A model generated the notes under the pieces. The model was not told the origin of the DNA and did not search any database. It saw only the letters and a list, made by a program, of their open reading frames with translations. DNA of 64,000 bases from Patescibacteria group bacterium (GTDB lineage Bacteria > Patescibacteriota > UBA1384 > XYA2-FULL-43-10 > 1-14-0-10-43-13): assembly GCA_041674765.1 (NCBI GenBank), contig JBAYVE010000002.1:113467-177466 (forward strand), given 5' to 3'. Shown piece after piece: positions 34,075 through 60,063 of the stretch. The translations under genes and the position numbers were made by a program. Position 1 is the first letter of the stretch; each line of letters begins with the position of its first letter.

Positions 34075-34176
34075 AGCTTAAAGCGAAAAGCATAAAGCCT
34101 AAAGCCGAAAGCGAAAAGCTTAAAGCATAAAGCAGAAAGCATAAAGCATAAAGCAGAAAGCATAAAGCATAAAGCG
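34064..34176. repeat. heptamer/nonamer tandem array (NNAAAGC)n, left arm of an inverted repeat flanking the four-helix-bundle gene
   Basis: ttaaagcataaagcttaaagcgaaaagcataaagcctaaagccgaaagc…cataaagcataaagcg. The array starts inside the cysS 3' end. A partner array with reversed polarity lies at 34541-34569 (ggctttcggctttgagctttttgcttta). Confidence 0.6.
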
Positions 34177-34182
34177 ATTGTG

Positions 34183-34536
34183 ATGAATACGATAAAAAAA
34201 TTTGAGGATCTCATTGTTTGGCAAAAATCCAGGTTATTGGTAACTGACTGTTATTTCACTTTTGAGTTTATCAAGGATTTTTCATTTAAAGATCAATTAT
34301 GCAGGGCTGCCGTTTCTATTATGAACAATATTGCTGAGGGTTATGAAAGAAAAGGAGACAAGGAATTCGGACGGTTTCTTTATATCGCAAAAGGCTCTTC
34401 AGGTGAATTTAGATCCATGCTTTATGCGGCTTCAGATCTAAAGTATATTACAAAAGACCAATTTTTAAATTTTTGTGGCCGATCCGAAGAGATCTCTCGG
34501 CTTTTAGTTGGTTTAATAAAAAGAATGAATACTTAA
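34183..34536 (+). CDS. four-helix-bundle protein (23S rRNA intervening-sequence-type protein family)
   Basis: About 117 aa. The IKKFEDLIVWQKSRLL…IAEGYER…GSSGEF pattern is typical of this family. Confidence 0.75.
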   Translation: MNTIKKFEDLIVWQKSRLLVTDCYFTFEFIKDFSFKDQLCRAAVSIMNNIAEGYERKGDKEFGRFLYIAKGSSGEFRSMLYAASDLKYITKDQFLNFCGRSEEISRLLVGLIKRMNT

Positions 34537-34576
34537 TGGAGGCTTTCGGCTTTGAGCTTTTTGCTTTAAACTTATT

Positions 34577-35626
34577 ATGAATTTTTGGAAAGATGTTGAT
34601 AGACCAATCAAAGTTCTCTCACCGATGGCCGGATATACCGACTCGGCTTTTCGTGTTCTGTGCCGCGAATTTGGCGCTGATGTGGTGATCACGGAGCTGA
34701 TTTCTGCAGATGCTATAGCCTACGGCAAATTTGAAATCCAAAATTTGAAATCCGAAACAAATTCTAATTCTAAAATTCAAAAACTAAATCAAACAATAGT
34801 TACAGGAAAAAATACTTCTACGGCGGAGATGTTATCTTTTTGCGAAGAAGAACGGCCTTTGGTGGTCCAATTATTTGGAAAATATCCAGCAAAATTTGGC
34901 ATAGCGGCTAAATGGGTTACTGAAAATTTAAAGCCAGATGGGATCGATATCAATATGGGTTGTCCCGCTAGAAAAGTGGTCAATTCTGATCATGGCGCAG
35001 CATTGCTAAAAAATCCTGATTTAGCTATCGAAATTGTAAAAGCAGTGAAGGAAAATACCGATTTGCCGGTCTCTGTCAAAACAAGACTTGGCTGGGACAA
35101 TGACGACCAAATTCTAGAGTTCGCGCCGAAACTCGCCAGCGCGGGGATTGACGCTTTGATTGTTCATGGGCGAACCTATAAAGATGGGTTCAAAGGGAAG
35201 GCTAGGTGGGAAAATATTTATAAGGTGAAAGCGTTGCTTCCGAATTTAACTGTAGTTGGCAACGGAGACATAGATTCAATTTTCAGTGTCATGCCCGTGA
35301 AGGCGGACCAGGAAAATAATGAATTGGATCCCCGGGTCAGGCCCGAGGATGACACTATTGGGCTGGACGGCTATGCCATCGGCCGAGCAACTTTTGGCAA
35401 GCCATGGATATTTTCGAAAGCTGAAGTTTCGAAAGACGAGTTGAAGGTGATAATTTTGCGGCATGCTAAACTTGTCTATCGAACAAAGGGTGATTATGGC
35501 ATGGTTGAATTTAGAAAACATCTCCTGGCTTATCTAAAAGATTTTCCAGGGGCTAAAGAGCTGAGGAAGAAAGCAGTTGCGATTAAAACACTTGATGAGG
35601 TTAAAGGAATTCTGGAATTGGTTTAA
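34577..35626 (+). CDS. dus: tRNA-dihydrouridine synthase with an in-frame repeat-derived insertion
   Basis: Flavin-binding TIM-barrel motifs are present (LSPMAGYTDSAFR…VQLFG…DINMGCPARKV…KTRLGWD). The segment YGKFEIQNLKSETNSNSKIQ is encoded by a copy of the AAATTYGAAATCC repeat. Confidence 0.85.
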   Translation: MNFWKDVDRPIKVLSPMAGYTDSAFRVLCREFGADVVITELISADAIAYGKFEIQNLKSETNSNSKIQKLNQTIVTGKNTSTAEMLSFCEEERPLVVQLFGKYPAKFGIAAKWVTENLKPDGIDINMGCPARKVVNSDHGAALLKNPDLAIEIVKAVKENTDLPVSVKTRLGWDNDDQILEFAPKLASAGIDALIVHGRTYKDGFKGKARWENIYKVKALLPNLTVVGNGDIDSIFSVMPVKADQENNELDPRVRPEDDTIGLDGYAIGRATFGKPWIFSKAEVSKDELKVIILRHAKLVYRTKGDYGMVEFRKHLLAYLKDFPGAKELRKKAVAIKTLDEVKGILELV

Positions 35627-35686
35627 GGTCTATCGTTCGAACAAGGTGAGAACTAATCTATTTTTACGTGAGAACAAAACAAAACC

Positions 35687-35838
35687 GTCATTCCCTAAAA
35701 CCCTATTAAATGTATTTATTCTTCGAATGGTGCTCTTAAAAATGAGAAGTCTGTCACTGTATTAATAAATGACCATAGTTCTCGTCGTTCCTCCTCGAAC
35801 AATAAGAAACAGGGAAATAGCAAGGTTTTTGGAATCAC
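35687..35838 (+). mobile_element. MITE-like 150-bp repeat element, copy B
   Basis: Begins immediately after the dus stop. The termini are cgtcattccctaaaacc and ggtttttggaatca. It shares an internal core with copies A and C. Confidence 0.6.
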
Positions 35839-35850
35839 AGAACGAAACTA

Positions 35851-41858: not shown

Positions 41859-42164
41859 ATGGTTGATTTGGGAAAGATGAAGGATCTCTACGCATTACAG
41901 AAAAAGGCTAGACAGATCCAAAAAGAATTAAAAAACGTCGAAGTTGAAGCATCTAGTAACGATGGCTGGGTTACTGTAGTTTTCAATGGAGAACAGCATC
42001 TTACTGAAATTAATTTGGCAGAAGAAGCGCTCCGACCTGAAAACAAGAGAGAACTCGAAAAAGATCTGAAAAATTCAATCTCCCAGGCTATTTCAAGGGC
42101 TCAAGCAGTCGCAGCTGAAAAGATGAAAGATATTGCAGGGGGAATGGGAATACCGGGACTTTAA
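41859..42164 (+). CDS. ybaB: nucleoid-associated protein YbaB/EbfC
   Basis: 101 aa with the typical YbaB pattern (DLGKMKDLYALQKKARQIQKEL…GGMGIPGL). The last codons lie inside the 69-bp repeat. Confidence 0.85.
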   Translation: MVDLGKMKDLYALQKKARQIQKELKNVEVEASSNDGWVTVVFNGEQHLTEINLAEEALRPENKRELEKDLKNSISQAISRAQAVAAEKMKDIAGGMGIPGL

Positions 42165-42316
42165 GACCCAGCTACCCTAAAGTCCCCATACGAATTACGA
42201 ATGTACGAATCTTACGAATGCTGAAGGAAACTATTTGTTGGATTTAGTACCGGGACTTTAAGACCCAGCTACCCTAAAGTCCCCATACGAATTACGAATG
42301 TACGAATCTTACGAAT
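42151..42316. repeat. two identical 69-bp direct repeats (42151-42219 and 42248-42316), each a 9-bp-stem hairpin plus (TACGAAT)x4
   Basis: taccGGGACTTTAagacccagctacccTAAAGTCCCcatacgaattacgaatgtacgaatcttacgaat is present twice, separated by 28 bp. Confidence 0.8.
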
Positions 42317-42332
42317 ATAATTTTCCTAAAAT

Positions 42333-42430
42333 GTCATCCTCGGGCAGGCAACGCCATGACCCGGGGATCCAATTCCTTATACTGGATTCCAGCCCGCCAG
42401 CTGGCGGATCAAGCTCCAGTCTGGAATGAC
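42333..42430. repeat. GTCATCC-type palindromic repeat element (copy 1)
   Basis: gtcatcctcgggcaggcaacgccatgacccggggatccaattcc…cgccagctggcg…tggaatgac. The termini gtcatcc and ggaatgac are inverted repeats. There is an internal 12-bp perfect palindrome. Confidence 0.6.
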
Positions 42431-42474
42431 AAATGTAATAATTTGAAATTAGTTTAATTTGGAATTGTAAAATT

Positions 42475-43110: not shown

Positions 43111-43524
43111 CCCTATGGACTATCATTTTTAGGATGAAAAAGGGCTATTCTAAATAGTGTCATCCTCGGGACCAATGGTGTTCTTGGAAATGGTGTCCGG
43201 GGATCCAATACCATATTATTGTTCGAACAAAGTGAGAAGTGATTCTTAGAACGTCATCCTGAACCGACGCAGTCGTCCCGAGCAGAGTCGAGGGATCTGT
43301 ATCTTGTTTCAGGATCTAATTCTTTTATTTGAGGACAAAGGGGCTCTTTCCGACCTGCCCGCAGATGCTAAAGCATCAGCTTTTGCAGGCGGGGGTCGCC
43401 CCTCTATCCTCAAACTCCAACTCCCTACACGGTATAGAGGAATTCTTTTTCTTCATAAAAAATCACTGGCTACGCCGTGGTCCTATGGGCTATCATTTTT
43501 TATGACGCAAAAGGACTATTGTAG
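43111..43524. repeat. ~45-bp direct repeats (43111-43157 and 43482-43524) bracketing two GTCATCC-type elements (43159-43212 and 43253-43316)
   Basis: ccctatggactatcatttttaggatgaaaaagggctattctaaatag is matched by cctatgggctatcattttttatgacgcaaaaggactattgtag. Between them lie gtgtcatcctcggga…tccggggatccaata and gtcatcctgaaccgacgcagtcgtcccgagcag. Confidence 0.5.
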
Positions 43525-43616
43525 TTGCTACAAATCAATTTTTCTGTTATATTTTATCAAATATTAATAATGTGGGAGCTTATAAAATAGGCGTTTGCAC
43601 CACAAAGGAGAACATT

Positions 43617-44423
43617 ATGTCCAAGAAAGACGAACTAGAGACAGCGGGAACAGAGGAAGTTTCCGAGAAAGAGCTGCTGAAGGAAGCAGAAGAGAGAGAA
43701 AAGCTTCGAAAAGAAAAAGAGGAAGCAGAAAAAGAAGCTCAAAAGGAAGAAGAAGCTGAGCAGAAAAAAGAGGAGAAAGCAGAGAAGGAAGCAAAGCGCC
43801 AGCAAACACAACGCCGAAAGCCACGACACGGTAAAAAATACAGAGCTTTGGCTGAAAAAGTCGAGAAAGACAAAGAGTACTCAATCGATGAATCAATTGA
43901 GCTCGCGATTAATACAAATCCATCAAAATTCGATGCGACTGTTGAAATGCACGTGAAAATAAATCCAAAGGAAAAGAGCGTTATTCGCGGAATGGTGAAG
44001 TTGCCTGGAGGCGTCACCAAGGAAAAGAAAGTTTTGGAAGTTACTATCGAAAATGTCGACGAAGTTGTTGCTAGCATTAAGGCTGGAAAAATTGATTTTG
44101 ATATTATGATCGCTGATATTAAGGTTATGCCAAAATTGGCTCAGCTTGCAAAGGTCTTAGGACCAAAGGGATTGATGCCTTCGCCAAAAGCGGGAACAGT
44201 GGTTCCGGACGTGAAAAAAGCAGCAGAGGAAATGGCCGGTGGAAAAGTTGAATATCGCGCTGACAAACAAAATATCGTGCATATGGCGATCGGAAAAATC
44301 TCGTTCGGACCAGAAAAGATAAAGCAAAATTTTGAAGCAATCTTAAGTCATCTGCCGAAAAAAATTGATTCTATCTATCTTACGACAACAATGGGTCCAA
44401 GCATCAGAGTCGCCAAGAAATAA
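43617..44423 (+). CDS. rplA: 50S ribosomal protein L1 with ~75-aa Lys/Glu-rich N-terminal extension
   Basis: AAGGAG RBS precedes the ATG at 43617. The L1 core runs from KYRALAEKV… to GPSIRVAKK. The track ORF starts at 43572. Confidence 0.9.
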   Translation: MSKKDELETAGTEEVSEKELLKEAEEREKLRKEKEEAEKEAQKEEEAEQKKEEKAEKEAKRQQTQRRKPRHGKKYRALAEKVEKDKEYSIDESIELAINTNPSKFDATVEMHVKINPKEKSVIRGMVKLPGGVTKEKKVLEVTIENVDEVVASIKAGKIDFDIMIADIKVMPKLAQLAKVLGPKGLMPSPKAGTVVPDVKKAAEEMAGGKVEYRADKQNIVHMAIGKISFGPEKIKQNFEAILSHLPKKIDSIYLTTTMGPSIRVAKK

Positions 44424-44566
44424 CATGACATAGATAGCAAATAAATTGATAGAGGATTGAGATAAAGTATAGAATAGGGCTGCCAAAAGGCGGCTCTATT
44501 TTATACTTTACGAACTTTACAGACTTTAAGAACTTTATAAACTTTACGAACTTCTTAAACTGTCTG

Positions 44567-44621: not shown

Positions 44622-47600
44622 ATGAACCCGGACCAGTTTAAAAATCTTGATCGATTAGATCAGGAACTTGCACGAATTCAAAGAAGTACGAAGACATCGT
44701 GGCGGTTTTTTGCTGCACCACATGACTGGCTCCGAATGAAATTTCGCTGGTACTATAAGTGGCACCTAAACCCTTGGGCTCAAATGGTGCACAAATTCAG
44801 TTTTGGTCTTGTTACTGCAGGGATTTTGCTTATTGTGCTGACTCAATTCGGTCTGTTTGACTTTAATCAATCCACAAAAGCAGCAGCTGTTTCTGTTGAT
44901 ACCTCTACGACTGGGGAAGCGACCAATAATAGCTCTCAAAGAAAAACCTTTACCGATACTGTTAATAATACTCAATGGGCTTTTTATAATAATGGAGAAG
45001 CGATAGAATATTCGTACTCTTCTGATGGAAGTTCGTGGGTAAGCGCTGGAACATTGGCGCATAATACTCAATATTTTAGTACTAATTACAAAGCCATATC
45101 CGGCGCTGGTTACGTTCTCTTGGCTACGGAATGCAATACTTATGATGTTTGTATTTACCAAGGTTCATTGACTGGAACTAGCATTTCCTTTGGCAGTGCG
45201 GCAACTGTTTTTGACGGCGTATCTTTATCAAATAATTATTCTAGACCCACAGTTACTTATGATGGCGACAACTATATTTGGGTTGGAGCGGTAAAGGATT
45301 TCGGTAATTCTTCTCCCGATCACCTTCAAGCTCAGACTAAAAAATCATCTTCTGCTAACAATATCTCCGGCTGGGGATCAGTTCTGACAGCAGGTAATAA
45401 GATGAAAATACTCACCAATGTAATTATCCTCAATCAGTCCGGTTCAAGTATGTATCTTGTTGCCTCAAATGGTTCTAGTGTTACCGGATTTAAATATACA
45501 ACCGAAGTTCCGGTGTGGACGAGTGCCAATGATGGTGGGGAGGCTGCCTGGTTTGAGTTTGGGGATGGGGGATTCAGTGCGGCGGTTAATGCGGTAGCTA
45601 TATCCGGAACTGATGTTTATGTCGGTGGCAGTTTTATCAAAATTGATTCGTTGACAACGAACTTCATTGCTAAATGGAATGGCTCTTCGTGGTCTACTCT
45701 CGGAAGTGGTGTCGGCGGCCCAGTTTATGCCCTAGAGGTTGTTGGGACGGATCTTTATGTCGGCGGAAGTTTCAATAGCGCCGGAGCGGTTGCTGTCAAC
45801 AATCTTGCCAAATTTAATACACTTACTTCTGAATGGTCAAGTGTTGGTGGCGGCGTAGTTGGTGTGGAAGAAAATAGTGCCATTGTATATTCTTTAATCG
45901 AATCAAATTCCAGCCTCTATATCGGAGGAAGCTTTGTTTTAGCAGGTGAAACGAGCGCAAAATCAATTGCTAAATGGGATATTGCGGCTGAGTCATGGAG
46001 CGCTCTAGGGAATGGCCTTATTGATATGAATGATAGCACCGCAATTGTACGCAGTATTGCGATTGATGGTTCAAGTGTTTATGCAGGTGGGATGTTCGTT
46101 CAGGCTGGCGAGGTAGCCGCCAATGTAGTGGCGGTCTGGGATGGTAATTCATGGTCCAGTATGGGGTCTCCTCAAATGGATATGGCGATGACGGTCGCAA
46201 TTTATAATTCGGAAGTGTATATCGGTGGTCTGGGCTGGAGTGAGGGCAATGCAGCAAAATGGAATGGTTCTGCGTGGGAATATATTAATTTTACGAGCGA
46301 AGTCAGAACCCTTGTAGTCAATGATGGCAAATTGTATGCGGGTGGAGGTTTTCAGGCTCTTGGCGAGGATTCTTTTAAGTTTATCGCTGTTTATAATGGA
46401 GTTTCTTGGAGTGGGCTCGAGCAAGATCTAAACAATACTGTGTCTCAGCTAACTTTTTCAGGTAACGATTTATATACCGTGGGATCCTATACGGCTGCAG
46501 GCACTGTTGCAGCGAAGTATTTTGCAAAATATAGTGATGGACAATGGCAGGCCCAAGGGAGTGTTGGGGGGATAGACGGTGATGTAAATACAATCGCAGT
46601 TGATGACAGTAACAATATTTATATTGGGGGCACTTTCAGAACAGCTGGCGGTATTTCTGCTAACAGAATTGCGAAATATGACGGAGATACCTGGAGCGCT
46701 CTTGGGACAGGGACTTCTGGCGAAGTTAAGGTAATAAAAGTGGTTGATGATATTGTTTACGTAGGCGGATCCTTTGCAAGTGCGGGAGGGGAAGCTACCT
46801 CAAACATCGCGTCATGGAATCCTGCAACTAGTACATGGAGTGCTTTGGGCAGCGGCACCGATAGCACGGTTTATACACTTGCTGATTTTGGGAGTTCTCT
46901 ATACGCAGGAGGTAATTTCTCTACGGCTGGAGGAGGAGCTGCTAGCAAAGTGGCAACATGGAATATGACTGCAGGAACTTGGAGTGCTCTTGGTAGTGGC
47001 GTTAACGACTTAGTTCTTTCAGTCGCCACCGATCCAGAAGGGAATTTATATGTTGGCGGAAGCTTTACTTCGCCTGGCTCGAAAATTGCTAAGTGGAATG
47101 GCTTGGAGTGGTCGGCATTAGGAACTGGCGTCAATAATTTGGTTCGATCATTGATATTTGTTGATAGTAAACTATATGTGAGTGGACATTTTACAACGGC
47201 TGGCGGCGTATCGTCAAACTTGGTGGCAATGTGGGATGGGGAAAACTGGAATAGTATGGGTCTGGCTGGGAGCGTTGTATACACGATCGCTGCTGACGCT
47301 TCAAATAATATTTATGCTAGTGTTCCGACTAATGGAAACCGCAGTGCTCAAGTAAAATGGAATGGCGAAGTTTGGGATAACTATAGTAACGGTTTTGCTG
47401 GTTCTGGAGTTTATTCGTCTTTATTTATTGGCGATAGATTGTACATCGGCGGTTCAACAACAGTTTTTTCTTCTTATGGAATGAGCGGAACTTCCCTCGG
47501 CTACCTTGAGAATGCTATCGCAAGGAGTACAGATTCAGGGTCAGAAGTGTCTGCAGTAACCGACTCTCTCGGTAATATTCATCTGGCATATTCTGCTTGG

Positions 47601-50600
47601 TATAATTCCGGACGAGCAATGTATAGTAAGCATTTTGATGCATCTACCAGCCGATGGGGGATTGATTACTCGATTGGAACCGAAGGATCACAACCTTCTC
47701 CGAGCATTGCGGTAAATCCTTCCAACAATGATATTTATGTGTTTTTGATTGCTAGCAACAACAGTGTTAAATACTACAAATGGGCCCTATCGACTGATCC
47801 AGAAGTACCTTCGTCTTGGGAACTTGTCGATAATATTTATAGCACAGGCACTAATACAGGTGTTTCTGTTAGTGAATATGTTTCAGGGTATAAGCTTGGA
47901 ATGATATGGACCAACGGCACTGGCTCTCCTTATACTGTTTATGCTGATTCCTTAAATTTTATTACATATGGTACTTTGAGTGGTACTGTTTACACGGATC
48001 GTACGGCAGCTACTCATGCTGGTGCCGGTGTGCAGGTCAGATTGGTAATCGATGGTACTTTAAACGAAGAAGTTGCTACTACCGATGAGAATGGCGCTTA
48101 CTCTTTTGTAACAGAGGTTGGGACGAACGATAACGTCCTAATATTTGCTGATCCTAGCGCCGGCAATATTTATGGAAATGTCGTGATGACTGCAAGCGGT
48201 GCAGATTTAACGGGCATCGATATTTACGGTAATGCTGTTATTGCTAGAAACGAAACGGCTTCGCAGGTTACAAATGAAACATTTCAAGCTGCTCACGGCT
48301 CTCTCACAGAGACAGGGATATTGTATTCCTCCGGGTTACCCATCGATTCGTCGGTGGATGGAACTTATTTTGACCTTTTGGTTTGGCCTGGCAAGAGTAT
48401 GACAGCTAGTGCGGACGTTCGTGTTGAAGATCTTGTGATAGGTACTGGTGCTACTCTAAGTGGAATGGCCTCTGCAGGTGAAAATGCATTTATGGTTTCC
48501 GGAGACTTTGTGAATAATGGTACTTTTGTTGCCAATCAGCAAAAGCTTATAGTTGAATGCTACGAAGGCTTTTGTAATGGCAGCAGTTCCCAAATTGTCA
48601 CTACTGGGGGAACCAATGCCACCTTTTACGATATTGATATTTCTAAACAGATTGGAGATTCTGTAATTATCGATGGAGACCTTAAAATTACACATGATCT
48701 CAATGTGATACACGGAACAATTGATTTGCTCACAAATACCCCTGATATAGATCTTTCTAATGATCTCTATATTTATACAAATGGTGATATGACAACAATG
48801 CCAGGAGATCTAACTTTTCTTGGGGACAGTGAATCCGAGCTGAGATTGATGAATTCTGATGTTTTTAGCCATATCATCATCGGCGGAGGAGAGGGCAAAA
48901 TTTTATCGTTGATCACATCATCCCTCTTGGCTGATACATTTACTATCAATGCCGGCAATATTTTCAAGCCGCCATACGAAGCGACGGCCACGATCAATGT
49001 GAATTGGGAAAATTATGGTACTCTTGATACTTCAAGCGGAAACTTGGCGTTGGTTTTAGAAGGTTCCGCGGAATCAAAAATATACGGCAACAATACTTTT
49101 TCTCAATTTTACTGCACAACCCCTGATAAAACGATTAAATTTGAAAGTGGTAAAACTCAAAATATTACCGGTGCTTTGAATATTACTGGTACCTCTGGGC
49201 ATAATGTTGTCTTGGCAATGCAGGGCGGGACTTCTGGTGTCGACTTTTGGAATATCGATCCCGATACCAGCTCTAGGACGGTTGATTACGTTAAAGTTAC
49301 TGATTCGACAAATTTAGACGAAGTTTATATCGATCCTCCAAATTACGATCCGGAGAGCAGCCATACTGTAAATTGGTTTCCAGCCGCTCCAACGGTAACA
49401 ACAGGAGCAAAGGATTCTTATCTAACGACGGATTTTTCATCCGACTGGATTGAGGCAAAGGGATCCATCACTGCTACTGGAGGTAAAAATCCGACTATTC
49501 GGGGTTTAAAATATAGCACTGTTGGCGAGCAGGACGATAGCTCTTCGTTTGACAGCGGTGATTACTCAACAGGCGATTTCACAAAAACTCTTTCCAATCT
49601 TGAAGTGAATACTCTCTATTATATCCGCGCCTATGCTACAAATACCGGCGGGACAGGTTACGGCAGCTGGATTTCAATGTATACCAAGGCCAATACTCCG
49701 GGCATTTCCGTTGCCGGGGATTATGACGAGGTCAGCGGCTATCATCTGGACGCTACTATTTCGCCGAATCTAAATTCCGATGGTACAGAATATTACTTGC
49801 AATATTCAACCGACGGAACCAATTTTTATGATCCAACGGGAATGGCTTGGGGGCAGACTGAAAAATCATACATTTTCACAACTGATAAAGACGGTGCTCA
49901 TATTCAACCATATACCCAATACTGGCTAAAGGTTAAAGCTCGAAACGGGGATAATATCGAGACCGACTATTCATCTTCATCAGCCGATGTTACGCCGCCA
50001 GCTGCACCAACAATAACAAATCCGGCAGTTTCAAATATCTGCAGCACTACAGCAACTGTGTCTTGGACAGCTTCCGTAAGTGGGGACAAATACGACCTAT
50101 CTTATGGTACTGATGCTAGCGCCAGCAATACCGCAGTTATCAATAATATCGCAACAACTAGTTATGAGTTGACGAATTTAGTAGAAGGTGACAAGTATTA
50201 TTTCAAAGTAAGGGCAGTTTCGAATGCAAATGGAACGGGTGCTTATTCATCAATTTCTGATCCTTTTACTCCAACAGCATGTGTGGCTCCTATTGCGCCA
50301 AATGATTTTTCGGGGACCCCTGCTTCAGCCTCAAGTATTGATTGGTCCTGGACTGATAGCTCGACGATCGAAACGGGCTACAAAGTGCATAATTTGACGC
50401 ATAGTTCTTTGTCCGGCGATCTTCCTGCAGATTCTATTGCCTGGAGCGAACAAAGTTTGGAAGTCAATACTGCGTATACTCGCCACGTTAATATTTTTAA
50501 CGAGATAGGCAATAATGATTCAAATTCGGCCACGGTTTACACAAAAGCAAATACTCCGGGCCAACCATCGGTTAACCAAATTGATTCAATTTCCTTAAAA

Positions 50601-53600
50601 GTTATTGTTTCTGAAGGGACAGATAATCCAAGCTATACCCATTATGAAATATATGAAACAACTACCGGTAAATATGTCAGGCAAAGTGATGGCACGCTGC
50701 AAGCAACTGAGGATTGGCAAACTTATTCCGGCTGGGGTGGAGCGAGTGGAATAACAATCAACGGATTAGACAGCAATACAAGCTACACCTTCCAAGTTCG
50801 AGCTGCTAACAAAGCTGCTATGGGTCTAGACAATGTTTTGACAGATTGGTCTGCTAGCACAACCAATTCGACTTATCCAAAATATTCTATAACTATCTCT
50901 ATAGACGGCACGGGAGAAGGCACTGTTTCTCCTTCCGCTGTTGATCCGGTCAATAGAGGAACAAGTGTTGACCTTACAGCCTCTCCATCGATTAACTCAA
51001 ATTTCACAACTTGGACCGGATGCACCTCTGTATCTGGCAATGTTTGCCATCTTTCCAATATTACTTCGGACAAATCTGTCACAGCTACTTTTGCGATCAA
51101 AACTTTCACCGTCCAGATATCCAAAGCAGGAAACGGAGCTTCCGTAAGTGATACTTCGCCAAATACAGAGCAGACAGTAAATTATGACGGAAGCATCGAC
51201 ATCACGGCTTTACCCCATATTTCAGCGAACTTTACCTCCTGGTCTGGATGCGATTCTGTCGAAGGTGCAGTCTGTCACCTCACAAATATCACATCCAACA
51301 AATCTGTCACAGCTACTTTTGCGATCAAAACTTTCACTGTTGCGGCAACATCCACCGGTTGTGGTTCGGTTTCAAACTCTTCGCAAGCAATAAATTACGG
51401 CTCGGATTCTGCTGTTATGACCTTCATTCCAAACTCAGGCTGCTATGTCTTCAATGTTGTCGCCGATGGCGATTCAGTCGGTTCGCCATCTTCCAAACAA
51501 TTTACAAATATCACACAAAATCATACCGTCGACGTGGAATTTCGTGAATATCCTACGGCAACGCTATCGATTAATTCCGGTAGCCTAAAAACCAATCAGG
51601 ATACAGTATCATTATCAATAACCCACAATACTACTGCCTTGGAAATGAAAATATCAAATAGCTCTGATTTAACGGGTGCAGAGTATACGCCGGTTCGATC
51701 ATCTATTAGCAATTGGATTTTGGCCGATTCATCTAACGACGGCGTTAAGACGGTCTATCTAAAGGTGAAAGACTCAGTTGGCCATGAGTCTGGAGTGGTT
51801 TCCGCCACCATATCACTCGATAAAACTCCGACTGATGCCCCGCTTAACTTAGTGGCTGTTGGCGGTAAAACCACTACTTCTCTCTCCTGGAAGAATCCTG
51901 TGGCCACCGACTTTACAAAAATGGCGGTTTTTCGTTCTACATCGCCGAATTTCATTCCGGATCTGGGTGCAAACAAGATCGGCGACACCAGAAATAACCT
52001 TGAGCATAGTTATATCGATACCAACGTAGCCAATGGTGTTCTTTACTATTATCGGATAAAAGCAGTTGATGATGCTGATAATTATTCAATATCCTCTAAT
52101 GAGGCATCAGCAAAAGCTGATAACGATCTACCTTCCGCACCAGGTCTGCCGACAATCACCGAAAAAACAAACTCAATTGATGATATAGAGTACACAAATA
52201 GGGGAAATAATACGATAACATGGCCAGCCTCTACAGATCTTAACTCTGGCTTGAAGCATTACTCAATTATGCTTACCATACCCCCGCTAGCTTCGAACAA
52301 TTGCGCTGAAACCACTACCGCTAATTCCCTAACATGTAATTTTTCAGATGGTATCTATAGTATCGCCGTTCAGGCACATGACAATACCGGTAATTCCAGT
52401 GCTTTCTCGCAAACATTATATTTTAATGTCGATACGTCAGCCCCGACGCTGACTGAACCACTTAGTATCTCCGATGCTCCTACCGATAGGTCAGCGCTCG
52501 ATTACAAAGCGCTTCTCTCGTGGAGCAAAGCTTCAGATGGCAATACGGGCGGTATCAGCAGCGGAATACTGGGCTATATCGTCTATCGGTATGAAGATCC
52601 GATCTTACTTCCAAATCAAATAGTAACGAAGGTCAGTACTGATTCCAGCGGAAATCCAAGCTATGTTGACGCAATTACCCCTGATAAAAACTATGATTAT
52701 TCGGTGCTTGCTGTAGACAAAGCAATGAACCGCTCGAGTAAAATCTCAAATAGTATAAATGTTGCCGGAATATTGCCAGGGGAGGGAGAACTGATAATCT
52801 CTGATATAACATCAACACCATCTGATCAGATGGGAGAGAAAACATTTGCTACTATTTCGTGGAAAACATCTGTTCCTTCTACCAGTATGGTCAGTTATGG
52901 TCTTGATACCGGTTATTCTCTGCAATCTCCACTTGACACCGGTCTAAATACGATCCATACAATGGTACTTAGCGATTTGGAGTTCAGCAAAACTTATCAC
53001 TTCAAAGTTTTCTCCGAGGCGGCAAATGGAGATCGTGCAAATTCTGATGATTACACTTTTACTACCAAGGATATCTTGAAGGATGATGATGTCTGGAGTG
53101 TTATACCAGGGGTGATTATTCGAATTGACGATGTTATTTCAAGAATAATCAATGAAATCAACGTTCGAGGGACTGCGCAGACTGTAGCCTTGCCTGTCGC
53201 TAGTTCGGCTGCTGTAGTTGCGGCATCTGGGGCAGCTGCTGCCGCTGCGCCGATTGCCAATGCGATGACCCTCTTTTCATTCCCAGAATATTTACGGGCA
53301 TTGTTATATTCAATATTATCAATCGGTTCAAGGCGTAAAAGGCGGGAATGGGGCAAGGTTGTCGAAGAGGGGACTGGCATCCCGATCGCACAAGCACGGC
53401 TAAGCCTGATTAGGTTGGAAAAGAATATTGCCGGTAACCCAATTGAAAAGATAGTTGCAACTACATATTCTGACAAGAAGGGCAATTATGCTTTCATCGC
53501 GGAGAAAGGTTCCTACCGTCTCTCAGTAGATAAAGATCTTTACAAAGTCTCGAATCTAAAGGACGTTTATCATCCCTCTGATGTTATAAAGGTAAAGGAA

Positions 53601-54116
53601 GACAAAGAAGGGCTGATTATTCCAAGTATCGTCCTTTCGATGGACAGCCATTCTGCAAAAAAGAAATTGTTGAGTTTAAATAGACTTAGTAAGTTTGAAA
53701 AAGTACTTTTCTATGTTTCCCTGGTCTTCCTGATTTTCGGCACTTATACATCGATACTAAATCTTCTAGCCAATCCCCGAAATCCGCTGAACTTTCTGAT
53801 TATTATTTATCCGATTCTCTGGGTTGTTACTCTGGCGAGTTTATTCAAAGTCTCCCCATGGGGCAATGTCGTTGATAAAACAAATTCTCAGGGTGTTTCA
53901 TTGGCTTTGGTTAGGATTATGGATAAAGGCGGAAAAGTGCTCGTAAAGACAGCAATTACCGACCAACAGGGCAAATACCAGACCACCGTGCCTAAAGGTG
54001 AGTACAAGATTCTGGTAGCCAAACAGGGCTACTTCCAAGCTGAGCCGGAGACCTTGAATGCGACAAATGAACTAAATGCTTTGAACAAACAGATTGAGGT
54101 CGTTCAAAGAAATTAG
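44622..54116 (+). CDS. giant (3164 aa) membrane-anchored surface protein with repeated beta-propeller-like, fibronectin-III/Ig-like and carboxypeptidase-regulatory-like domains
   Basis: An N-terminal TM is present. There are about 15 units of LYVGGSF…AGG…IAKWNG..WSALG (~50 aa). These are followed by fn3-like blocks (TPPAAPTITNP…VSWTAS) and a near-duplicated segment (CHLSNITSDKSVTATFAIKTFTV and CHLTNITSNKSVTATFAIKTFTV). The C-terminus has 3-4 TM segments flanked by CarbopepD_reg-like motifs (DKKGNYAF…GSYRLSV; DQQGKYQTTVPKGEYKILV). Confidence 0.8.
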   Translation: MNPDQFKNLDRLDQELARIQRSTKTSWRFFAAPHDWLRMKFRWYYKWHLNPWAQMVHKFSFGLVTAGILLIVLTQFGLFDFNQSTKAAAVSVDTSTTGEATNNSSQRKTFTDTVNNTQWAFYNNGEAIEYSYSSDGSSWVSAGTLAHNTQYFSTNYKAISGAGYVLLATECNTYDVCIYQGSLTGTSISFGSAATVFDGVSLSNNYSRPTVTYDGDNYIWVGAVKDFGNSSPDHLQAQTKKSSSANNISGWGSVLTAGNKMKILTNVIILNQSGSSMYLVASNGSSVTGFKYTTEVPVWTSANDGGEAAWFEFGDGGFSAAVNAVAISGTDVYVGGSFIKIDSLTTNFIAKWNGSSWSTLGSGVGGPVYALEVVGTDLYVGGSFNSAGAVAVNNLAKFNTLTSEWSSVGGGVVGVEENSAIVYSLIESNSSLYIGGSFVLAGETSAKSIAKWDIAAESWSALGNGLIDMNDSTAIVRSIAIDGSSVYAGGMFVQAGEVAANVVAVWDGNSWSSMGSPQMDMAMTVAIYNSEVYIGGLGWSEGNAAKWNGSAWEYINFTSEVRTLVVNDGKLYAGGGFQALGEDSFKFIAVYNGVSWSGLEQDLNNTVSQLTFSGNDLYTVGSYTAAGTVAAKYFAKYSDGQWQAQGSVGGIDGDVNTIAVDDSNNIYIGGTFRTAGGISANRIAKYDGDTWSALGTGTSGEVKVIKVVDDIVYVGGSFASAGGEATSNIASWNPATSTWSALGSGTDSTVYTLADFGSSLYAGGNFSTAGGGAASKVATWNMTAGTWSALGSGVNDLVLSVATDPEGNLYVGGSFTSPGSKIAKWNGLEWSALGTGVNNLVRSLIFVDSKLYVSGHFTTAGGVSSNLVAMWDGENWNSMGLAGSVVYTIAADASNNIYASVPTNGNRSAQVKWNGEVWDNYSNGFAGSGVYSSLFIGDRLYIGGSTTVFSSYGMSGTSLGYLENAIARSTDSGSEVSAVTDSLGNIHLAYSAWYNSGRAMYSKHFDASTSRWGIDYSIGTEGSQPSPSIAVNPSNNDIYVFLIASNNSVKYYKWALSTDPEVPSSWELVDNIYSTGTNTGVSVSEYVSGYKLGMIWTNGTGSPYTVYADSLNFITYGTLSGTVYTDRTAATHAGAGVQVRLVIDGTLNEEVATTDENGAYSFVTEVGTNDNVLIFADPSAGNIYGNVVMTASGADLTGIDIYGNAVIARNETASQVTNETFQAAHGSLTETGILYSSGLPIDSSVDGTYFDLLVWPGKSMTASADVRVEDLVIGTGATLSGMASAGENAFMVSGDFVNNGTFVANQQKLIVECYEGFCNGSSSQIVTTGGTNATFYDIDISKQIGDSVIIDGDLKITHDLNVIHGTIDLLTNTPDIDLSNDLYIYTNGDMTTMPGDLTFLGDSESELRLMNSDVFSHIIIGGGEGKILSLITSSLLADTFTINAGNIFKPPYEATATINVNWENYGTLDTSSGNLALVLEGSAESKIYGNNTFSQFYCTTPDKTIKFESGKTQNITGALNITGTSGHNVVLAMQGGTSGVDFWNIDPDTSSRTVDYVKVTDSTNLDEVYIDPPNYDPESSHTVNWFPAAPTVTTGAKDSYLTTDFSSDWIEAKGSITATGGKNPTIRGLKYSTVGEQDDSSSFDSGDYSTGDFTKTLSNLEVNTLYYIRAYATNTGGTGYGSWISMYTKANTPGISVAGDYDEVSGYHLDATISPNLNSDGTEYYLQYSTDGTNFYDPTGMAWGQTEKSYIFTTDKDGAHIQPYTQYWLKVKARNGDNIETDYSSSSADVTPPAAPTITNPAVSNICSTTATVSWTASVSGDKYDLSYGTDASASNTAVINNIATTSYELTNLVEGDKYYFKVRAVSNANGTGAYSSISDPFTPTACVAPIAPNDFSGTPASASSIDWSWTDSSTIETGYKVHNLTHSSLSGDLPADSIAWSEQSLEVNTAYTRHVNIFNEIGNNDSNSATVYTKANTPGQPSVNQIDSISLKVIVSEGTDNPSYTHYEIYETTTGKYVRQSDGTLQATEDWQTYSGWGGASGITINGLDSNTSYTFQVRAANKAAMGLDNVLTDWSASTTNSTYPKYSITISIDGTGEGTVSPSAVDPVNRGTSVDLTASPSINSNFTTWTGCTSVSGNVCHLSNITSDKSVTATFAIKTFTVQISKAGNGASVSDTSPNTEQTVNYDGSIDITALPHISANFTSWSGCDSVEGAVCHLTNITSNKSVTATFAIKTFTVAATSTGCGSVSNSSQAINYGSDSAVMTFIPNSGCYVFNVVADGDSVGSPSSKQFTNITQNHTVDVEFREYPTATLSINSGSLKTNQDTVSLSITHNTTALEMKISNSSDLTGAEYTPVRSSISNWILADSSNDGVKTVYLKVKDSVGHESGVVSATISLDKTPTDAPLNLVAVGGKTTTSLSWKNPVATDFTKMAVFRSTSPNFIPDLGANKIGDTRNNLEHSYIDTNVANGVLYYYRIKAVDDADNYSISSNEASAKADNDLPSAPGLPTITEKTNSIDDIEYTNRGNNTITWPASTDLNSGLKHYSIMLTIPPLASNNCAETTTANSLTCNFSDGIYSIAVQAHDNTGNSSAFSQTLYFNVDTSAPTLTEPLSISDAPTDRSALDYKALLSWSKASDGNTGGISSGILGYIVYRYEDPILLPNQIVTKVSTDSSGNPSYVDAITPDKNYDYSVLAVDKAMNRSSKISNSINVAGILPGEGELIISDITSTPSDQMGEKTFATISWKTSVPSTSMVSYGLDTGYSLQSPLDTGLNTIHTMVLSDLEFSKTYHFKVFSEAANGDRANSDDYTFTTKDILKDDDVWSVIPGVIIRIDDVISRIINEINVRGTAQTVALPVASSAAVVAASGAAAAAAPIANAMTLFSFPEYLRALLYSILSIGSRRKRREWGKVVEEGTGIPIAQARLSLIRLEKNIAGNPIEKIVATTYSDKKGNYAFIAEKGSYRLSVDKDLYKVSNLKDVYHPSDVIKVKEDKEGLIIPSIVLSMDSHSAKKKLLSLNRLSKFEKVLFYVSLVFLIFGTYTSILNLLANPRNPLNFLIIIYPILWVVTLASLFKVSPWGNVVDKTNSQGVSLALVRIMDKGGKVLVKTAITDQQGKYQTTVPKGEYKILVAKQGYFQAEPETLNATNELNALNKQIEVVQRN

Positions 54117-54129
54117 AGTCCTATGACCA

Positions 54130-54279
54130 TGATTCCGAAAACCCTAATAAACGTATTTATTCTTTAAATGGTGCTCTTAAAAATGAGAACTTCTGTCACT
54201 GTACTAATAAGTGACAGAAGTTCTCGTCGTTCCTCCTCGAACAATAAGAAACAGGGAAAGGGTAAGGTTTTCGGAATCA
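54130..54279 (+). mobile_element. MITE-like 150-bp repeat element, copy C (perfect 14-bp TIRs)
   Basis: Begins 14 bp after the giant-gene stop. The 5' TIR is tgattccgaaaacc and the 3' TIR is ggttttcggaatca. There is an internal perfect hairpin (CTTCTGTCACtgtactaataaGTGACAGAAG). Confidence 0.65.
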
Positions 54280-54564
54280 CGTTTGATGATTATTGACAGC
54301 TTACTTAAATTATGATAAATTAATAGAGTCCAAAGACCACTAGCCTTCGCTAAAACTACAGCCGGCAAACCAGCCCGGATAGCGATAGAAGTCTTGTGCA
54401 GGAATTCCGTTAGTATAGAGTAAATATTATTGATATATGTCTATCAGCATTCTGCTGCCATCATATACAATAAATTTTATACTTTCTTGATTTCTGCGCT
54501 AGTCGCAGATTTTTTTAAATAGAGTCACAAAAAAGTAACGAAATTTACGAAAGTAAAGGAATTC

Positions 54565-55083: not shown

Positions 55084-55103
55084 TCTTATAAACTGAGTAT
55101 AGT

Positions 55104-55144
55104 GTCATTCTCGGGCAGGCAACGCCATGACCCGGGAATCCAAT
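55104..55144. repeat. GTCATCC-type palindromic element (copy between rplJ and rplL)
   Basis: gtcattctcgggcaggcaacgccatgacccgggaatccaat. Confidence 0.5.
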
Positions 55145-55181
55145 ACATTAGGTTAATTAAAAACGTTTAATAAGGAGAATC

Positions 55182-55589
55182 ATGGAAGAGAAGAAAGAAG
55201 TAGAGGTTCCTGAGAAATTCAAGGATCTCGTCGAAAAAATTGAGAAATTAACAGTTCTCGAATTGGCAGAACTTGTAAAAGTTCTCGAAGAGAAGTTTGG
55301 TGTCTCAGCCGCTGCTCCAATGATGATGGGCGCGATGCCTGCCGCTGGTGCCTCATCTGAGCCAGTTGAAGAGAAAACAGCATTTGATGTTGTTCTGACT
55401 AGCGCAGGCGCACAGAAGATCAACGTTATCAAAGCTGTTCGTGAAATCAAGCCAGAACTTGGTTTGAAAGAAGCCAAGGATTTAGTTGATGCTGCTCCAA
55501 AAGATATCTTGAAAGGTGCTAAGAAAGAAGATGCTGAAGCTGCAAAGGCAAAGCTTGAAGCTGCCGGCGCAACTGTCGAAATGAAATAA
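55182..55589 (+). CDS. rplL: 50S ribosomal protein L7/L12
   Basis: AAGGAGA RBS. Has an Ala-rich hinge. The C-terminal domain runs [24 protein letters not shown]…[14 protein letters not shown]. Confidence 0.95.
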
Positions 55590-55645
55590 GCAAGCGAATA
55601 AGCTAGTAAGCTGATAAGCTTGTAAGTGATAAGAATATACCACCT

Positions 55646-55667
55646 GGAGCCGAAAGGCTCCTTTTGG
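55646..55667 (+). terminator. Rho-independent terminator after rplL
   Basis: GGAGCCgaaaGGCTCCTTTTGG. A second hairpin (CCTCCCCttttcgaGGGGAGG) follows about 50 bp later. Confidence 0.6.
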
Positions 55668-55794
55668 TATAATATTAATAGTCTTTTTACATCCTTTCTT
55701 TTGTCATTCTTGGGTTTCATTCCTCCCCTTTTCGAGGGGAGGTTAGGTGGGGTTTATTGAATTTCAATACCTTGTATTAGTTGCTTGCAAATAA

Positions 55795-55842
55795 GGAATT
55801 GGATCCCCGTGTCATGGCTGCCGCCTGCCCGAGGATGACACT
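55795..55842. repeat. GTCATCC-type palindromic element (reverse orientation, between rplL and tgt)
   Basis: ggaattggatccccgtgtcatggctgccgcctgcccgaggatgacac is the reverse complement of the copy-1 core. Confidence 0.55.
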
Positions 55843-55871
55843 ATTGAGAAGACCAATTAAAAATTTACAAA

Positions 55872-57206
55872 ATGTCTTTTAAATTAATCAAAAAATTAGA
55901 TAACGGTACCCGAATCGGGGAACTGGCGACGCCTCATGGTAAGATTGAGACGCCCTTTTTCATGCCGGTTGGAACTGTCGGCAGCGTGAAATCGGTTTCG
56001 CCGAATGAATTAAAAGAGCTAGGTTCAGAGATCATACTTAGTAATACTTATCATTTGTACTTGCGACCAGGGGAGAAACTGATCAAGGATTTTGGCGGAC
56101 TCCACAAATTTATGAGATGGGATCGGCCAATCCTTACAGACTCTGGGGGATACCAAGTTTTTTCTTTGGCAAGAGGGGACAACCATAATAAGAATGTCAT
56201 TTATGGTTCTGTCATTCCCGCGGAGGCGGGAATCCAGAAGACCAAGGAATTGGATCCCCGGGTCACCGTTCGACCCCGAGCGACTCACGGTCGAGGGGAG
56301 CCCGAGGATGACACCATTATTAGGGACAGCAAAAGGGGTCTTGTCAAAATTACCGAGGAAGGTGTGGAATTTAAATCATTTCTCGATGGCAGCAAACATT
56401 TTTTCACTCCTGAGAAAGTTATCCAAATTCAGCTTGATCTGGGCGTCGATATTCTGATGCCGCTAGATGTTTGTCCGAGCGGCAAAGCAACTCGAAAAGA
56501 AGTGGAAGAATCGGTTCGATTAACTATTTTATGGGCAAAAAGAGCAAAAGAATATTTTGATTGCAAGATACAAGAAACAAGAGACAATAATCAAAAAAAT
56601 AACAATACAACAATAAAACAATATGACAATCGACCTCTTCTTCATGGTATCGTTCAGGGTGGTTTATATGAAGATTTAAGAAGAGAGTGCGCCAAAGAAC
56701 TTATCAAATTGGACTTCGATGGCTATTCGGTCGGCGGATTGGCTGTTGATCATGAAACAAGGGATATGTGGGAGACGGTAAAACTGATGGGGGAGATATT
56801 GCCTCAGGATAAACAAAGGTATCTGATGGGTGTCGGTACACCGGATGATATTATAAAAGCTACAGAATTAGGCATGGATATGTTTGATTGTGTCTTGCCG
56901 ACACGTTTGGCGAGACACGGAAATGTGTATGTCAGAGCAGAAAGCCAAAAACAAAAAGCTAAAAATATTAACCTATATGAACTCATTAACCTCCTCAAAT
57001 CCGAATATCGAACCGATAGGGGAGTGATAGATGAAAATTGTGGCTGTGAAGCTTGCCAGAAGGGAACGGGTTTCTCAAAGGCCTACATTTCCCATCTAAT
57101 TCGTTCAAATGAGATTTTAGGGCTCAGACTTGCGACGTTGCACAATCTCTATCAATATCTGGAGCTTATGAGAGAACTCGGTTGGAGAGTGGAACGGGGA
57201 AAGTAG
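55872..57206 (+). CDS. tgt: queuine tRNA-ribosyltransferase carrying an in-frame repeat-element insertion
   Basis: Conserved Tgt blocks are present (FMPVGTVGSVK, PILTDSGGYQVFSL, YLMGVGTPDD, CxCxxC zinc site). An extra ~45-aa segment (…NVIYGSVIPAEAGIQKTKELDPRVTVRPRATHGRGEPEDDTII…) is encoded by a GTCATCC-type element. Confidence 0.85.
   Translation: MSFKLIKKLDNGTRIGELATPHGKIETPFFMPVGTVGSVKSVSPNELKELGSEIILSNTYHLYLRPGEKLIKDFGGLHKFMRWDRPILTDSGGYQVFSLARGDNHNKNVIYGSVIPAEAGIQKTKELDPRVTVRPRATHGRGEPEDDTIIRDSKRGLVKITEEGVEFKSFLDGSKHFFTPEKVIQIQLDLGVDILMPLDVCPSGKATRKEVEESVRLTILWAKRAKEYFDCKIQETRDNNQKNNNTTIKQYDNRPLLHGIVQGGLYEDLRRECAKELIKLDFDGYSVGGLAVDHETRDMWETVKLMGEILPQDKQRYLMGVGTPDDIIKATELGMDMFDCVLPTRLARHGNVYVRAESQKQKAKNINLYELINLLKSEYRTDRGVIDENCGCEACQKGTGFSKAYISHLIRSNEILGLRLATLHNLYQYLELMRELGWRVERGK
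56211..56316. repeat. GTCATCC-type palindromic element inserted in-frame inside tgt
   Basis: gtcattcccgcggaggcgggaatcc…ggaattggatccccgggtcacc…gggagcccgaggatgacacc. It includes an 8-bp perfect hairpin (ATTCCCGCggagGCGGGAAT). Confidence 0.6.
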
Positions 57207-57284
57207 AATGTAGAGAGTGGAATGTAGAATGGGGAGTGTAGAGCGTAGAATGTAGAACGTAGAATGGGGGGTGTGGAACGGGGC
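57187..57284. repeat. G-rich GTAGAATG/GGAATG tandem repeat (second copy of the 121-190 family)
   Basis: gagtggaacggggaaagtagaatgtagagagtggaatgtagaatggggagtgtagagcgtagaatgtagaacgtagaatggggggtgtggaacgggg. It starts within the last codons of tgt. Confidence 0.55.
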
Positions 57285-59790: not shown

Positions 59791-59930
59791 AACAGATTAC
59801 GGATTATTTAAGTATACAAATTTTGGATATTTAAGTAATCCTTTGAACTTTGACAATAGAATATTTATCCGGAGCAAGAAATTTTCATACATTGTTCGGC
59901 AATATTTGCATGCGAGATTCCCGCCTTCGC

Positions 59931-60063
59931 GGGAATGACAAAGAAATAGGGGAATGACAGAAAGTCTGGGGAATGACAAAGAAAACAGGAGAATGACAAA
60001 AAAAGGGGGAATATCAGAGAAATATGGGAATAATAGAGAAATAAGGGAATAGTAGATAGACAG
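59931..60063. repeat. iteron-like array: seven ~19-bp direct repeats of GGGAATGACAAAGAAA decaying 5'->3'
   Basis: gggaatgacaaagaaatag / gggaatgacagaaagtctg / gggaatgacaaagaaaacag / gagaatgacaaaaaaag / ggggaatatcagagaaatat / gggaataatagagaaataa / gggaatagtag. It is preceded by the hairpin ATTCCCGCcttcGCGGGAAT and lies 105 bp upstream of the 60169 gene. Confidence 0.6.

Follow-up and report, generated by a model that had tools for sequence, protein, structure and literature searches.

The 64 kb stretch of Patescibacteria DNA analysed here (contig JBAYVE010000002.1, positions 113,467 to 177,466; the window in what follows) carries a family of short tagged hairpins, which are found in intergenic spacers and, in frame, inside two genes for tRNA-modification enzymes, tgt and dus. 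That the repeats of tgt, dus and the spacers are one family of tagged hairpins is confirmed. Most probably they belong to the superfamily of CGTC/TGTC-tagged hairpins which includes dRS3/NTS, the Ssn motifs and RPE-4/6, and pairs of such hairpins landed in, or turned over within, loops of the Tgt and Dus proteins.

Tagged hairpins of the window

One tagged hairpin makes up the repeat unit. A structural census limited to GTCAT[TC]C hairpins, searching for the tag [T/C]GTC, then an 8-9 bp stem that begins with AT and, beyond a loop, the other stem arm followed by a C, gave ten clean TGTC/CGTC-tagged hairpins in the window (Table 1), well above chance; an over-permissive version of the census had 37 matches, compared to 27 in random sequence. 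The enrichment is also seen with plain motifs, GTCATYCYSGG being present six times where 0.23 matches are expected and CCSGGGRATCCA six times where 0.77 are expected, and no shuffle gave six for either. The tag is TGTC in nine hairpins and CGTC in the tenth; the stem starts with AT, and is directly followed by a C, in every one of them. The tail is CCA in nine of the ten, as it is in 288 of the 355 hairpins across all loci retrieved. Type A hairpins read TGTCATTCCCGCGRAGGCGGGAATC, and type B comprises six hairpins with a common longer consensus, ATAGTGTCATCCTCGGG...CCCGGGGATCCAATTCCTTAT. The stem measures 8 bp in the short-loop copies of type A (56211 and 59917) and 9 bp in the other eight hairpins. 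A loop of 4-5 nt is present in three copies, namely 56211 (GGAG), 59917 (GAAG) and 35328 (CCTGA). As single-stranded DNA (ssDNA), the hairpins adopt the fold expected of them.

Only three inverted pairs, with GTCAT...ATGAC at both ends, are present in the window: one in the ybaB/pth spacer (42333-42430), one in tgt and one in dus. The ends of a pair are inverted (TGTCAT...ATGACA), and an 8-bp/4-nt unit is joined to a 9-bp unit. The ybaB/pth pair has an architecture like that of tgt, with a distance from GTC to GAC of 98 nt, a length not divisible by three. The intergenic copies occur in both orientations, and no target-site duplication or flanking direct repeat was seen at the three pairs of the window.

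A preliminary description of this DNA had listed six copies, all of which are present in the sequence. The intergenic ones lie, as it claimed, at the ybaB/pth, pth/rplA, rplJ/rplL and rplL/tgt junctions (Pfam gives YbaB, Pth, L1, L10 and L7/L12), and near-identical copies which have the extended consensus in common are present in four spacers. The list was incomplete: a repeat search, with matches at 35316-35353 and 59916-59940, also found the in-frame dus pair (35288-35353) and the single hairpin at 59913-59940, which had been overlooked. The common termini GTCATYC/GRATGAC proposed for all copies are found in the ybaB/pth, tgt and dus pairs; the other copies are single hairpins, and the one at 43253-43315 belongs to a different stem subfamily. 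A short-loop form of the ATCCTGAAC stem of this subfamily is located at L095:625-650, in the stretch of the source contig before the window, where a further inverted pair is found at L095:~575-650.

Table 1. Positions of hairpins, host genes and associated features in the window
Feature	Position	Strand	Remarks
dus, tRNA-dihydrouridine synthase, 349 aa, second host gene	34577..35626	+	PDB 1vhn, E=1e-39
Degenerate hairpin A in dus (TGTCATGCCCGTGAAGGCGGACCAG)	35287..35312	+	decayed stem; place and frame as in tgt
Hairpin B in dus, short form, 5-nt loop	35324..35354	-	9/9 stem pairs, CCA tail; census 35328-35353
Hairpin B, 15-nt loop, ybaB/pth spacer, first half of intergenic pair	42332..42380	+	census 42333-42368
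Hairpin A, 24-nt loop, second half of intergenic pair	42383..42431	-	census 42386-42430
Single hairpin B, 25-nt loop, 3' of pth	43158..43216	+	census 43159-43204
CGTC-tagged hairpin, other stem subfamily ATCCTGAAC/GTTTCAGGAT, 42-nt loop, tail CTA	43252..43318	+	census 43253-43315
Single hairpin B, rplJ/rplL spacer	55103..55151	+	census 55104-55139
Single hairpin B, rplL/tgt spacer	55791..55844	-	census 55803-55839
tgt, 444 aa, host gene	55872..57206	+	E. coli/Z. mobilis TGT match; same ORF (open reading frame) called in public assembly
Possible left relic of older element: GTCATT plus TATGGTTC	56196..56209	+	L090 pair appears to start at the same AAT/GTCATT
Hairpin A in tgt: TGTC, ATTCCCGC, GGAG, GCGGGAAT, CCAG	56210..56237	+	perfect 8-bp stem, 4-nt loop, CCA tail; census 56211-56233
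12-nt spacer between tgt hairpins	56238..56249	.	read from sequence
Hairpin B in tgt: TGTC, ATCCTCGGG, 38-nt loop with inner hairpin, CCCGGGGAT, CCAA	56250..56313	-	9-bp stem, one T.G pair; census 56254-56312
Possible right relic of older element: CCATTATT plus AGGGAC	56314..56327	+	appears to align with CAGGATGAC/AGGAAA of L090
Single hairpin A	59913..59940	-	census 59917-59939; sole strict SRM match
7-nt-period arrays	34065-34175, 125-185, 57185-57280, 42189-42220, 55598-55633, 44499-44561, 25103-25133		

Other repeats are found next to two of the hairpins. An exact 69-nt direct repeat is present at 42151-42219, overlapping the 3' end of ybaB, and at 42248-42316, ending just before the ybaB/pth pair. 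At 59931-60056 a 19-nt unit, GGGAATGACAAAGAAATAG, is repeated about six times. This array begins exactly at the stem-and-tag end of the hairpin 59913-59940, and it looks as if it had been seeded by the hairpin end.

In-frame pairs in tgt and dus

The product of tgt matches E. coli and Z. mobilis TGT with E ~1e-86, leaving query residues 101-157 without counterpart, and its insertion loop exceeds that of E. coli Tgt by 57 residues. The element within the gene is an in-frame, tail-to-tail pair of two hairpins (56210-56313). The reading frame is intact, and the same 444-aa gene is present in the public assembly, so the in-frame copy of the preliminary description stands; its size of about 45 added residues does not, as the pair measures 102 nt from GTC to GAC (56211-56312), or 34 codons encoding VIPAEAGIQKTKELDPRVTVRPRATHGRGEPEDD. 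Hairpin A of this pair is of the CGTC-1/NTS-like type. When folded as ssDNA, the complete pair scores z = -4.35 for the plus strand and z = -5.21 for the minus strand.

The closest Tgt orthologue DNA (L090) holds a different, 57-nt pair, GTCATTCTGAAT...CAGGATGAC, which starts at AAT/GTCATT. The tgt of the window has GTCATT at the left boundary of that pair and AGG-GAC at the right one, and between them TATGGTTCT, the 102-nt pair and ACCATTATT. From this comparison the tgt element would be a newer pair nested in the relic of an older one.

A protein with 100% identity to the Dus of the window is present in an NCBI Patescibacteria metagenome-assembled genome. The dus gene of the window contains a pair of 66 nt from GTC to GAC (35288-35353), encoding VMPVKADQENNELDPRVRPEDD, in the same orientation and frame as the pair in tgt. 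Hairpin B of this pair differs by one base, located in the loop, from the 30-mer TTGGATCCCCGGGTCAAGCCCGAGGATGAC, the commonest form across phyla.

In an AlphaFold2 model of Tgt based on a 73-sequence alignment, the core has a mean predicted local distance difference test score (pLDDT) of 82 and a predicted TM-score (pTM) of 0.82, and compared to Z. mobilis TGT structures its TM-score relative to the target is 0.87-0.89. Residues 95-153 have a pLDDT <50 and no secondary structure in the model. The AlphaFold2 model of Dus (pLDDT 89.7) has a low-confidence coil at about residues 238-264 (pLDDT 53-58), where canonical Dus has a helix. Alignment of Tgt to reference sequences and structures, as recommended in the preliminary description, places the insert in a loop predicted to be disordered, and the inserts of both genes are predicted to encode disordered surface loops which leave the enzyme core unaffected.

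The nearest Tgt proteins are those of Patescibacteria and Berkelbacteria (353-527 aa; best blastp identity 71%); the window's own Tgt was not among the matches of the homologue search, though the gene is on public record. In an alignment of 120 of these proteins the loop bounded by QVFSL and LVKITEDGVEF is hypervariable: roughly one in four has a short version (GDRGGKKNGS), others carry hairpin-derived peptides (VIPAKAGIQNLDPRVKSEDDT; VIPAQAGISKIPDQVRDD; VILNESEESPEILRSTQDD; VILSETKNL...QDD), including loops with DSRLRGND, which correspond to the opposite strand of the hairpin, and some have low-complexity runs. The Dus loop between GNGDI and LDGxAIGRA is as variable as that of Tgt (120 homologues). 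A 60-nt A-plus-B pair is present in the Tgt orthologue L092. The distance from GTC to GAC is a multiple of three in all four Tgt and Dus cases (102, 66, 57 and 60 nt), and in only 6 of 11 pairs inside other genes. At this loop the closest Tgt orthologues hold a different hairpin pair or none.

The Tgt of the window has two more low-complexity insertions with respect to E. coli TGT, at 56559-56636 (residues ~230-255, KIQETRDNNQKNNNTTIKQYDN) and 56943-56984 (residues 358-371, SQKQKAKNINLYE), the second of which resembles the intergenic AAAGCAN heptamer repeat. Several spacers of the window contain tandem arrays with a period of 7 nt or multiples thereof, including TAAAGCA (16 copies), GAATGTG, TACGAAT and others, and peptides similar to these arrays (low-complexity, KFKISNLKSN etc.) occupy variable Tgt and Dus loops of relatives.

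The variability of the loops bears on the age of the insertions. A single ancient insertion of an element which is no longer mobile, diversified by decay, slippage and gene conversion with the intergenic copies, would account for the many close orthologues with one left boundary (ARGNNHNK followed by GTCATT), for the decayed hairpin A of dus and for the fact that no empty-site allele was found. It would not be expected to leave independent pairs in orthologues with different flanks (P0030), a pair in the opposite orientation (P0015), perfect stems in the tgt pair, which is seemingly nested in relic ends, or near-identical copies with the extended consensus in four spacers, and we consider it unlikely.

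The hairpin family is not specific to the genome of the window and spans many phyla. A scan for TTGGATCCCCG-N7-37-CCCGAGGATGAC, with one genome per species, gave 89 loci in many Patescibacteria classes, in Alpha- and Gammaproteobacteria including cultured Agrobacterium, Labrenzia and Pararhizobium, and in Campylobacterota, Nitrospira, Thermodesulfovibrionales, Verrucomicrobia and others; the single 30-mer mentioned above makes up 34 of the 89 hits. At 41 loci a second tagged hairpin is located within 90 nt upstream, tail to tail. These upstream hairpins have 20 different stems, all with pairing kept, a CCA tail in 30 cases and the tag TGTC in 27 and CGTC in 13. Of the 89 hits, 18 are located in reading frames that remain open for 60 codons or more to either side, and the Patescibacteria genes hosting an in-frame pair, as named from conserved sequence motifs alone, include housekeeping genes and encode LeuRS, LepA, AhcY, MutM and RNase HII, along with a methyltransferase, a glycosyltransferase and others. 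The reading frame is kept in every intragenic case examined. Judged from these hits in open frames of LeuRS, LepA, AhcY, MutM, RNase HII and other genes, in-frame insertion is common in Patescibacteria.

The 15-nt loop variant of hairpin B, CAGGCAACGCCATGA, has three copies in the window (42333-42368, 55104-55139 and 55803-55839) and is also present, with one or two changes, in Saccharibacteria genomes (L018, L076 and L079), a distribution which suggests spread between distant Patescibacteria lineages.

Since both inserts are read in one frame (VIP...LDPRV...EDD), which is kept in two genes, the peptide might be regarded as a selected functional module, for instance a binding loop, with the similarity to intergenic DNA being secondary. 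This is very improbable given that the same DNA is found in non-coding spacers in both orientations, the same peptide in unrelated genes, and a different peptide or none in the closest orthologues; moreover, the insert is predicted to be disordered and four to five of the six frames of the hairpin, in a consensus read by eye, are free of stops. Very improbable, too, is that the segment is an intervening sequence (intron-like, subject to translational bypass, or an intein) taken out ahead of translation or in its course, which would leave a canonical mature Tgt. The element is indeed strongly structured, and many insertions in Patescibacteria rRNA genes are described (PMC11270868); still, no Rfam family is matched at the gathering threshold in the whole window, 34 codons are far below the size of an intein, and a reading frame kept in all intragenic cases is not needed if the sequence is removed.

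Hairpins and small GIY-YIG genes

In Neisseria, the single-domain GIY-YIG nuclease SsnA (cd10448) binds the NTS hairpin CGTCATTCCCGCGMAVGCGGGAATCYRG as ssDNA and cuts a few nucleotides upstream, the C after the palindrome being critical for binding (Chenal et al. 2025, PMC11893778). Related motifs (SRM) flank ssnA homologues across many phyla, and the NTS-ssnA-NTS layout is insertion-sequence-like (PMC11893778). Similar arrangements are found in relatives. In the relative L094 the space between cysS and dus contains a tagged hairpin, a gene for a 94-aa GIY-YIG protein and two inverted hairpins. In a metagenome scan with an alignment of three GIY-YIG proteins, tagged hairpins were present on both sides of the GIY-YIG gene in 40 of the best 80 loci, which were those kept, with the tags pointing away from the gene, a layout like that of NTS-ssnA-NTS. 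Up to 350 nt from the gene the hairpin density was 2.82 per kb, versus 0.16 per kb beyond. Because outward-tagged hairpins flank the gene in 40 of these 80 loci, the A-plus-B pair can be said to have the ends of a hairpin-GIY-YIG-hairpin unit with the gene missing. As its arrangement is that of the hairpins which flank Ssn-type GIY-YIG genes, minus the gene, the pair looks like a non-autonomous element similar to a miniature inverted-repeat transposable element (MITE).

The source contig (ENA ERZ27247358, k141_1527432, 222 kb) has two GIY-YIG genes of its own, about 9 kb before the window, whose products (90 and 83 aa) are 35-40% identical to the hairpin-flanked protein of L094. At L095:900-1740 the two genes, which lie at 990-1262 and 1482-1733, bracket tRNA-Trp, and a degenerate partial copy of tRNA-Trp precedes the first, which suggests insertion of a GIY-YIG gene at the tRNA-Trp gene. 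The slot between cysS and dus seems to collect small selfish cassettes: in the window (34075-34576) it harbours a 118-aa 23S-rRNA-IVP (four-helix-bundle) gene between inverted heptamer arrays (34087-34112 and 34542-34567), and in L094 the equivalent slot (1527-1985) is that of the hairpin-flanked GIY-YIG gene. A strand-specific G.T wobble in the stems was considered as a possible signature; the GIY-YIG loci are unbiased in this respect and other loci only mildly biased (T.G 15 versus C.A 5), and it was not used as evidence.

These data can be put together in the following way. The unit consists of an unpaired TGTC/CGTC tag, an 8-9 bp stem starting with AT, a loop, either expanded or of 4-5 nt, and a C, usually as part of a CCA tail. 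Two units joined tail to tail, with the tags outward, form a pair of 57-104 nt, which looks like a non-autonomous, MITE-like derivative of an insertion-sequence-like, hairpin-flanked GIY-YIG unit. Such pairs most probably landed in the surface loops of Tgt and Dus, or replaced one another there, and the copies keeping the frame would have been retained because the GC-rich hairpin is poor in stop codons and encodes a peptide predicted to be disordered and core-sparing. The elements may move as ssDNA, a GIY-YIG nuclease may cut or mobilise the hairpins in the organism of the window, and the inserted peptide is presumably translated.

A number of observations weigh against this explanation. No GIY-YIG gene was found in the window by motif scan or tblastn, and the two genes of the source contig have no clear flanking hairpins. 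With NCBIfam the GIY-YIG proteins gave only a weak, sub-threshold match to group I intron endonucleases, and they could not be assigned to the Ssn clade (cd10448). A role of the Ssn nuclease as transposase is only a hypothesis in the paper describing it (PMC11893778), and in our literature search no paper was found showing Ssn nucleases acting as transposases. Seven of the ten hairpins have an expanded loop of 15-42 nt, the canonical loop being of 4-5 nt. The strict SRM pattern, HGTCWYN(0-2)YYVSBRHN(0-5)WNVSBRGN(0-2)RNCYNB, is matched only by 59913-59940 (1 match versus 0.08 expected); hairpin A of tgt fails at one loop base and the type B copies fail on loop length. Finally, no empty-site allele or polymorphism attests to recent mobility, and the loop may descend from one old insertion.

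A further-reaching version would have the Patescibacteria pairs as active non-autonomous derivatives of Ssn units, which transpose as ssDNA and home into existing copies, giving the nested or replaced hot-spot loops of Tgt, Dus, LeuRS and LepA. We regard this as doubtful. If true, it would represent a transposition route driven by GIY-YIG nucleases, through which ultra-small genomes would steadily gain new disordered protein loops.

Some other features of the window were noted. An element of about 145 nt is present three times with 84-93% identity (35686-35842, 54125-54283 and, in reverse, 31290-31445). It has terminal inverted repeats (ATTCCSWAAAACC/GGTTTTYGGAAT), folds into a long hairpin, has no Rfam match and carries a CGTC tag in the 35686 copy only; it may represent a related hairpin whose loop holds a large cargo, or a separate MITE or RNA. 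Between rplA and rplJ, ribosomal protein genes which are usually neighbours, there is an ORF of 3164 aa (44622-54116). A hairpin insertion was suspected in L1, which is matched by Pfam in two stretches; the extra segment turned out to be an N-terminal Lys/Glu-rich extension of about 90 residues (43572-43850).

Comparison with known repeat systems

The closest published description is that of the CGTC-tagged repetitive extragenic palindromes (REPs), defined by Di Nocera, De Gregorio and Rocco in 2013 (PMC3733652). Their tag is CGTC, often TGTC (variant CCTC), their stems of 8 or 9 bp start with AT (first pairs A-T and T-A), the tail is mostly CCA, and the loop has 4 nt in family 1 and 5 nt in families 2-4, with variants in some species (PMC3733652). 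They are mostly dimers, including heterodimers, and some are located in genes, where they encode 20-30 aa; CGTC-1 corresponds to Neisseria dRS3 and R. conorii RPE-6, and CGTC-4 to RPE-4 (PMC3733652). The hairpins of the window are alike in tag, stem, tail, inverted pairs and in-frame genic copies. They differ in the loops, which in most window copies have 15-42 nt, and in the host genes, which are for tRNA-modification enzymes here and mainly for DNA repair in the case of the published repeats. The NTS consensus differs at two positions from hairpin A of the window (TGTCATTCCCGCGGAGGCGGGAATCCAG), and the C located 3' of the stem in NTS and SRM is also present in all window copies. While 2% of the NTS of N. 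meningitidis are inside genes (PMC11893778), two of the three window pairs are in frame in genes.

The inverted-pair organisation also recalls REPINs and BIMEs, which are likewise inverted doublets of short hairpins spreading in a genome, with a single-copy gene between hairpins. We nevertheless find it scarcely probable that the repeats are classical REPs or REPINs served by a RAYT (IS200/IS605-type tyrosine transposase) or a terminal-inverted-repeat MITE served by a DDE transposase. REPINs and BIMEs are tagged with GTAG and served by a Y1 (HUH) transposase; none of the ten window hairpins has this tag, TGTC or CGTC being present instead, and in relatives it is a GIY-YIG gene that lies between such hairpins. 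For CGTC repeats no dedicated or tyrosine transposase is known (PMC3733652). A classical MITE would agree in its inverted ends and differ in the target-site duplication, which was not seen at the three pairs.

The preliminary description knew of no account of such behaviour in Patescibacteria-like genomes. No description of CGTC-type hairpins in Patescibacteria was found in the literature searched, the coverage of which is incomplete, so that absence is not proven. Patescibacteria are not mentioned in PMC3733652, whose survey reports the repeats in five phyla, mostly in alpha-proteobacteria, nor in PMC11893778, and a literature search on the repeat-derived peptide strings gave nothing relevant. 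The element itself belongs to a published superfamily. What appears to be new is that it is found in Patescibacteria, how often its copies lie in frame within core genes, and the pattern of hot spots and nesting seen in Tgt and Dus.

A known hairpin class (CGTC-REP, NTS/SRM, RPE-4/6) is by this extended to Patescibacteria, streamlined genomes in which the hairpins are repeatedly found in frame in core translation and tRNA-modification genes. For annotators this is a simple account of odd peptides (VIPAxAGIQ, LDPRVKPEDD, DSRLRGND) and of length variation in candidate-phyla proteins. The Tgt and Dus loops mark sites which tolerate large insertions, and elements nested or replaced at one loop are natural material for the question of whether Ssn-type GIY-YIG nucleases mobilise hairpins.

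The Rickettsia palindromic elements (RPE; Ogata et al., as cited in PMC3733652) are likewise found both in intergenic sequence and in frame in functional genes, to which they add a peptide. The idea, put forward in the preliminary description, of a selfish palindromic repeat of this kind tolerated in frame is supported by the presence of the same DNA in spacers in both directions, the differing loops of the orthologues, the predicted disorder of the insert and the TGT-like core. In the original RPE work, RPE-1 reportedly forms a sequence family of its own, of greater length (about 100-150 bp). The CGTC type is stated for RPE-4 and RPE-6 only, and their relation to the window hairpins is taken from the published family definition. 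Because the hairpins of the window fit the definition of CGTC-tagged REPs, which includes RPE-6 and RPE-4, their likeness to Rickettsia palindromic elements is likely to be one of homology rather than analogy.

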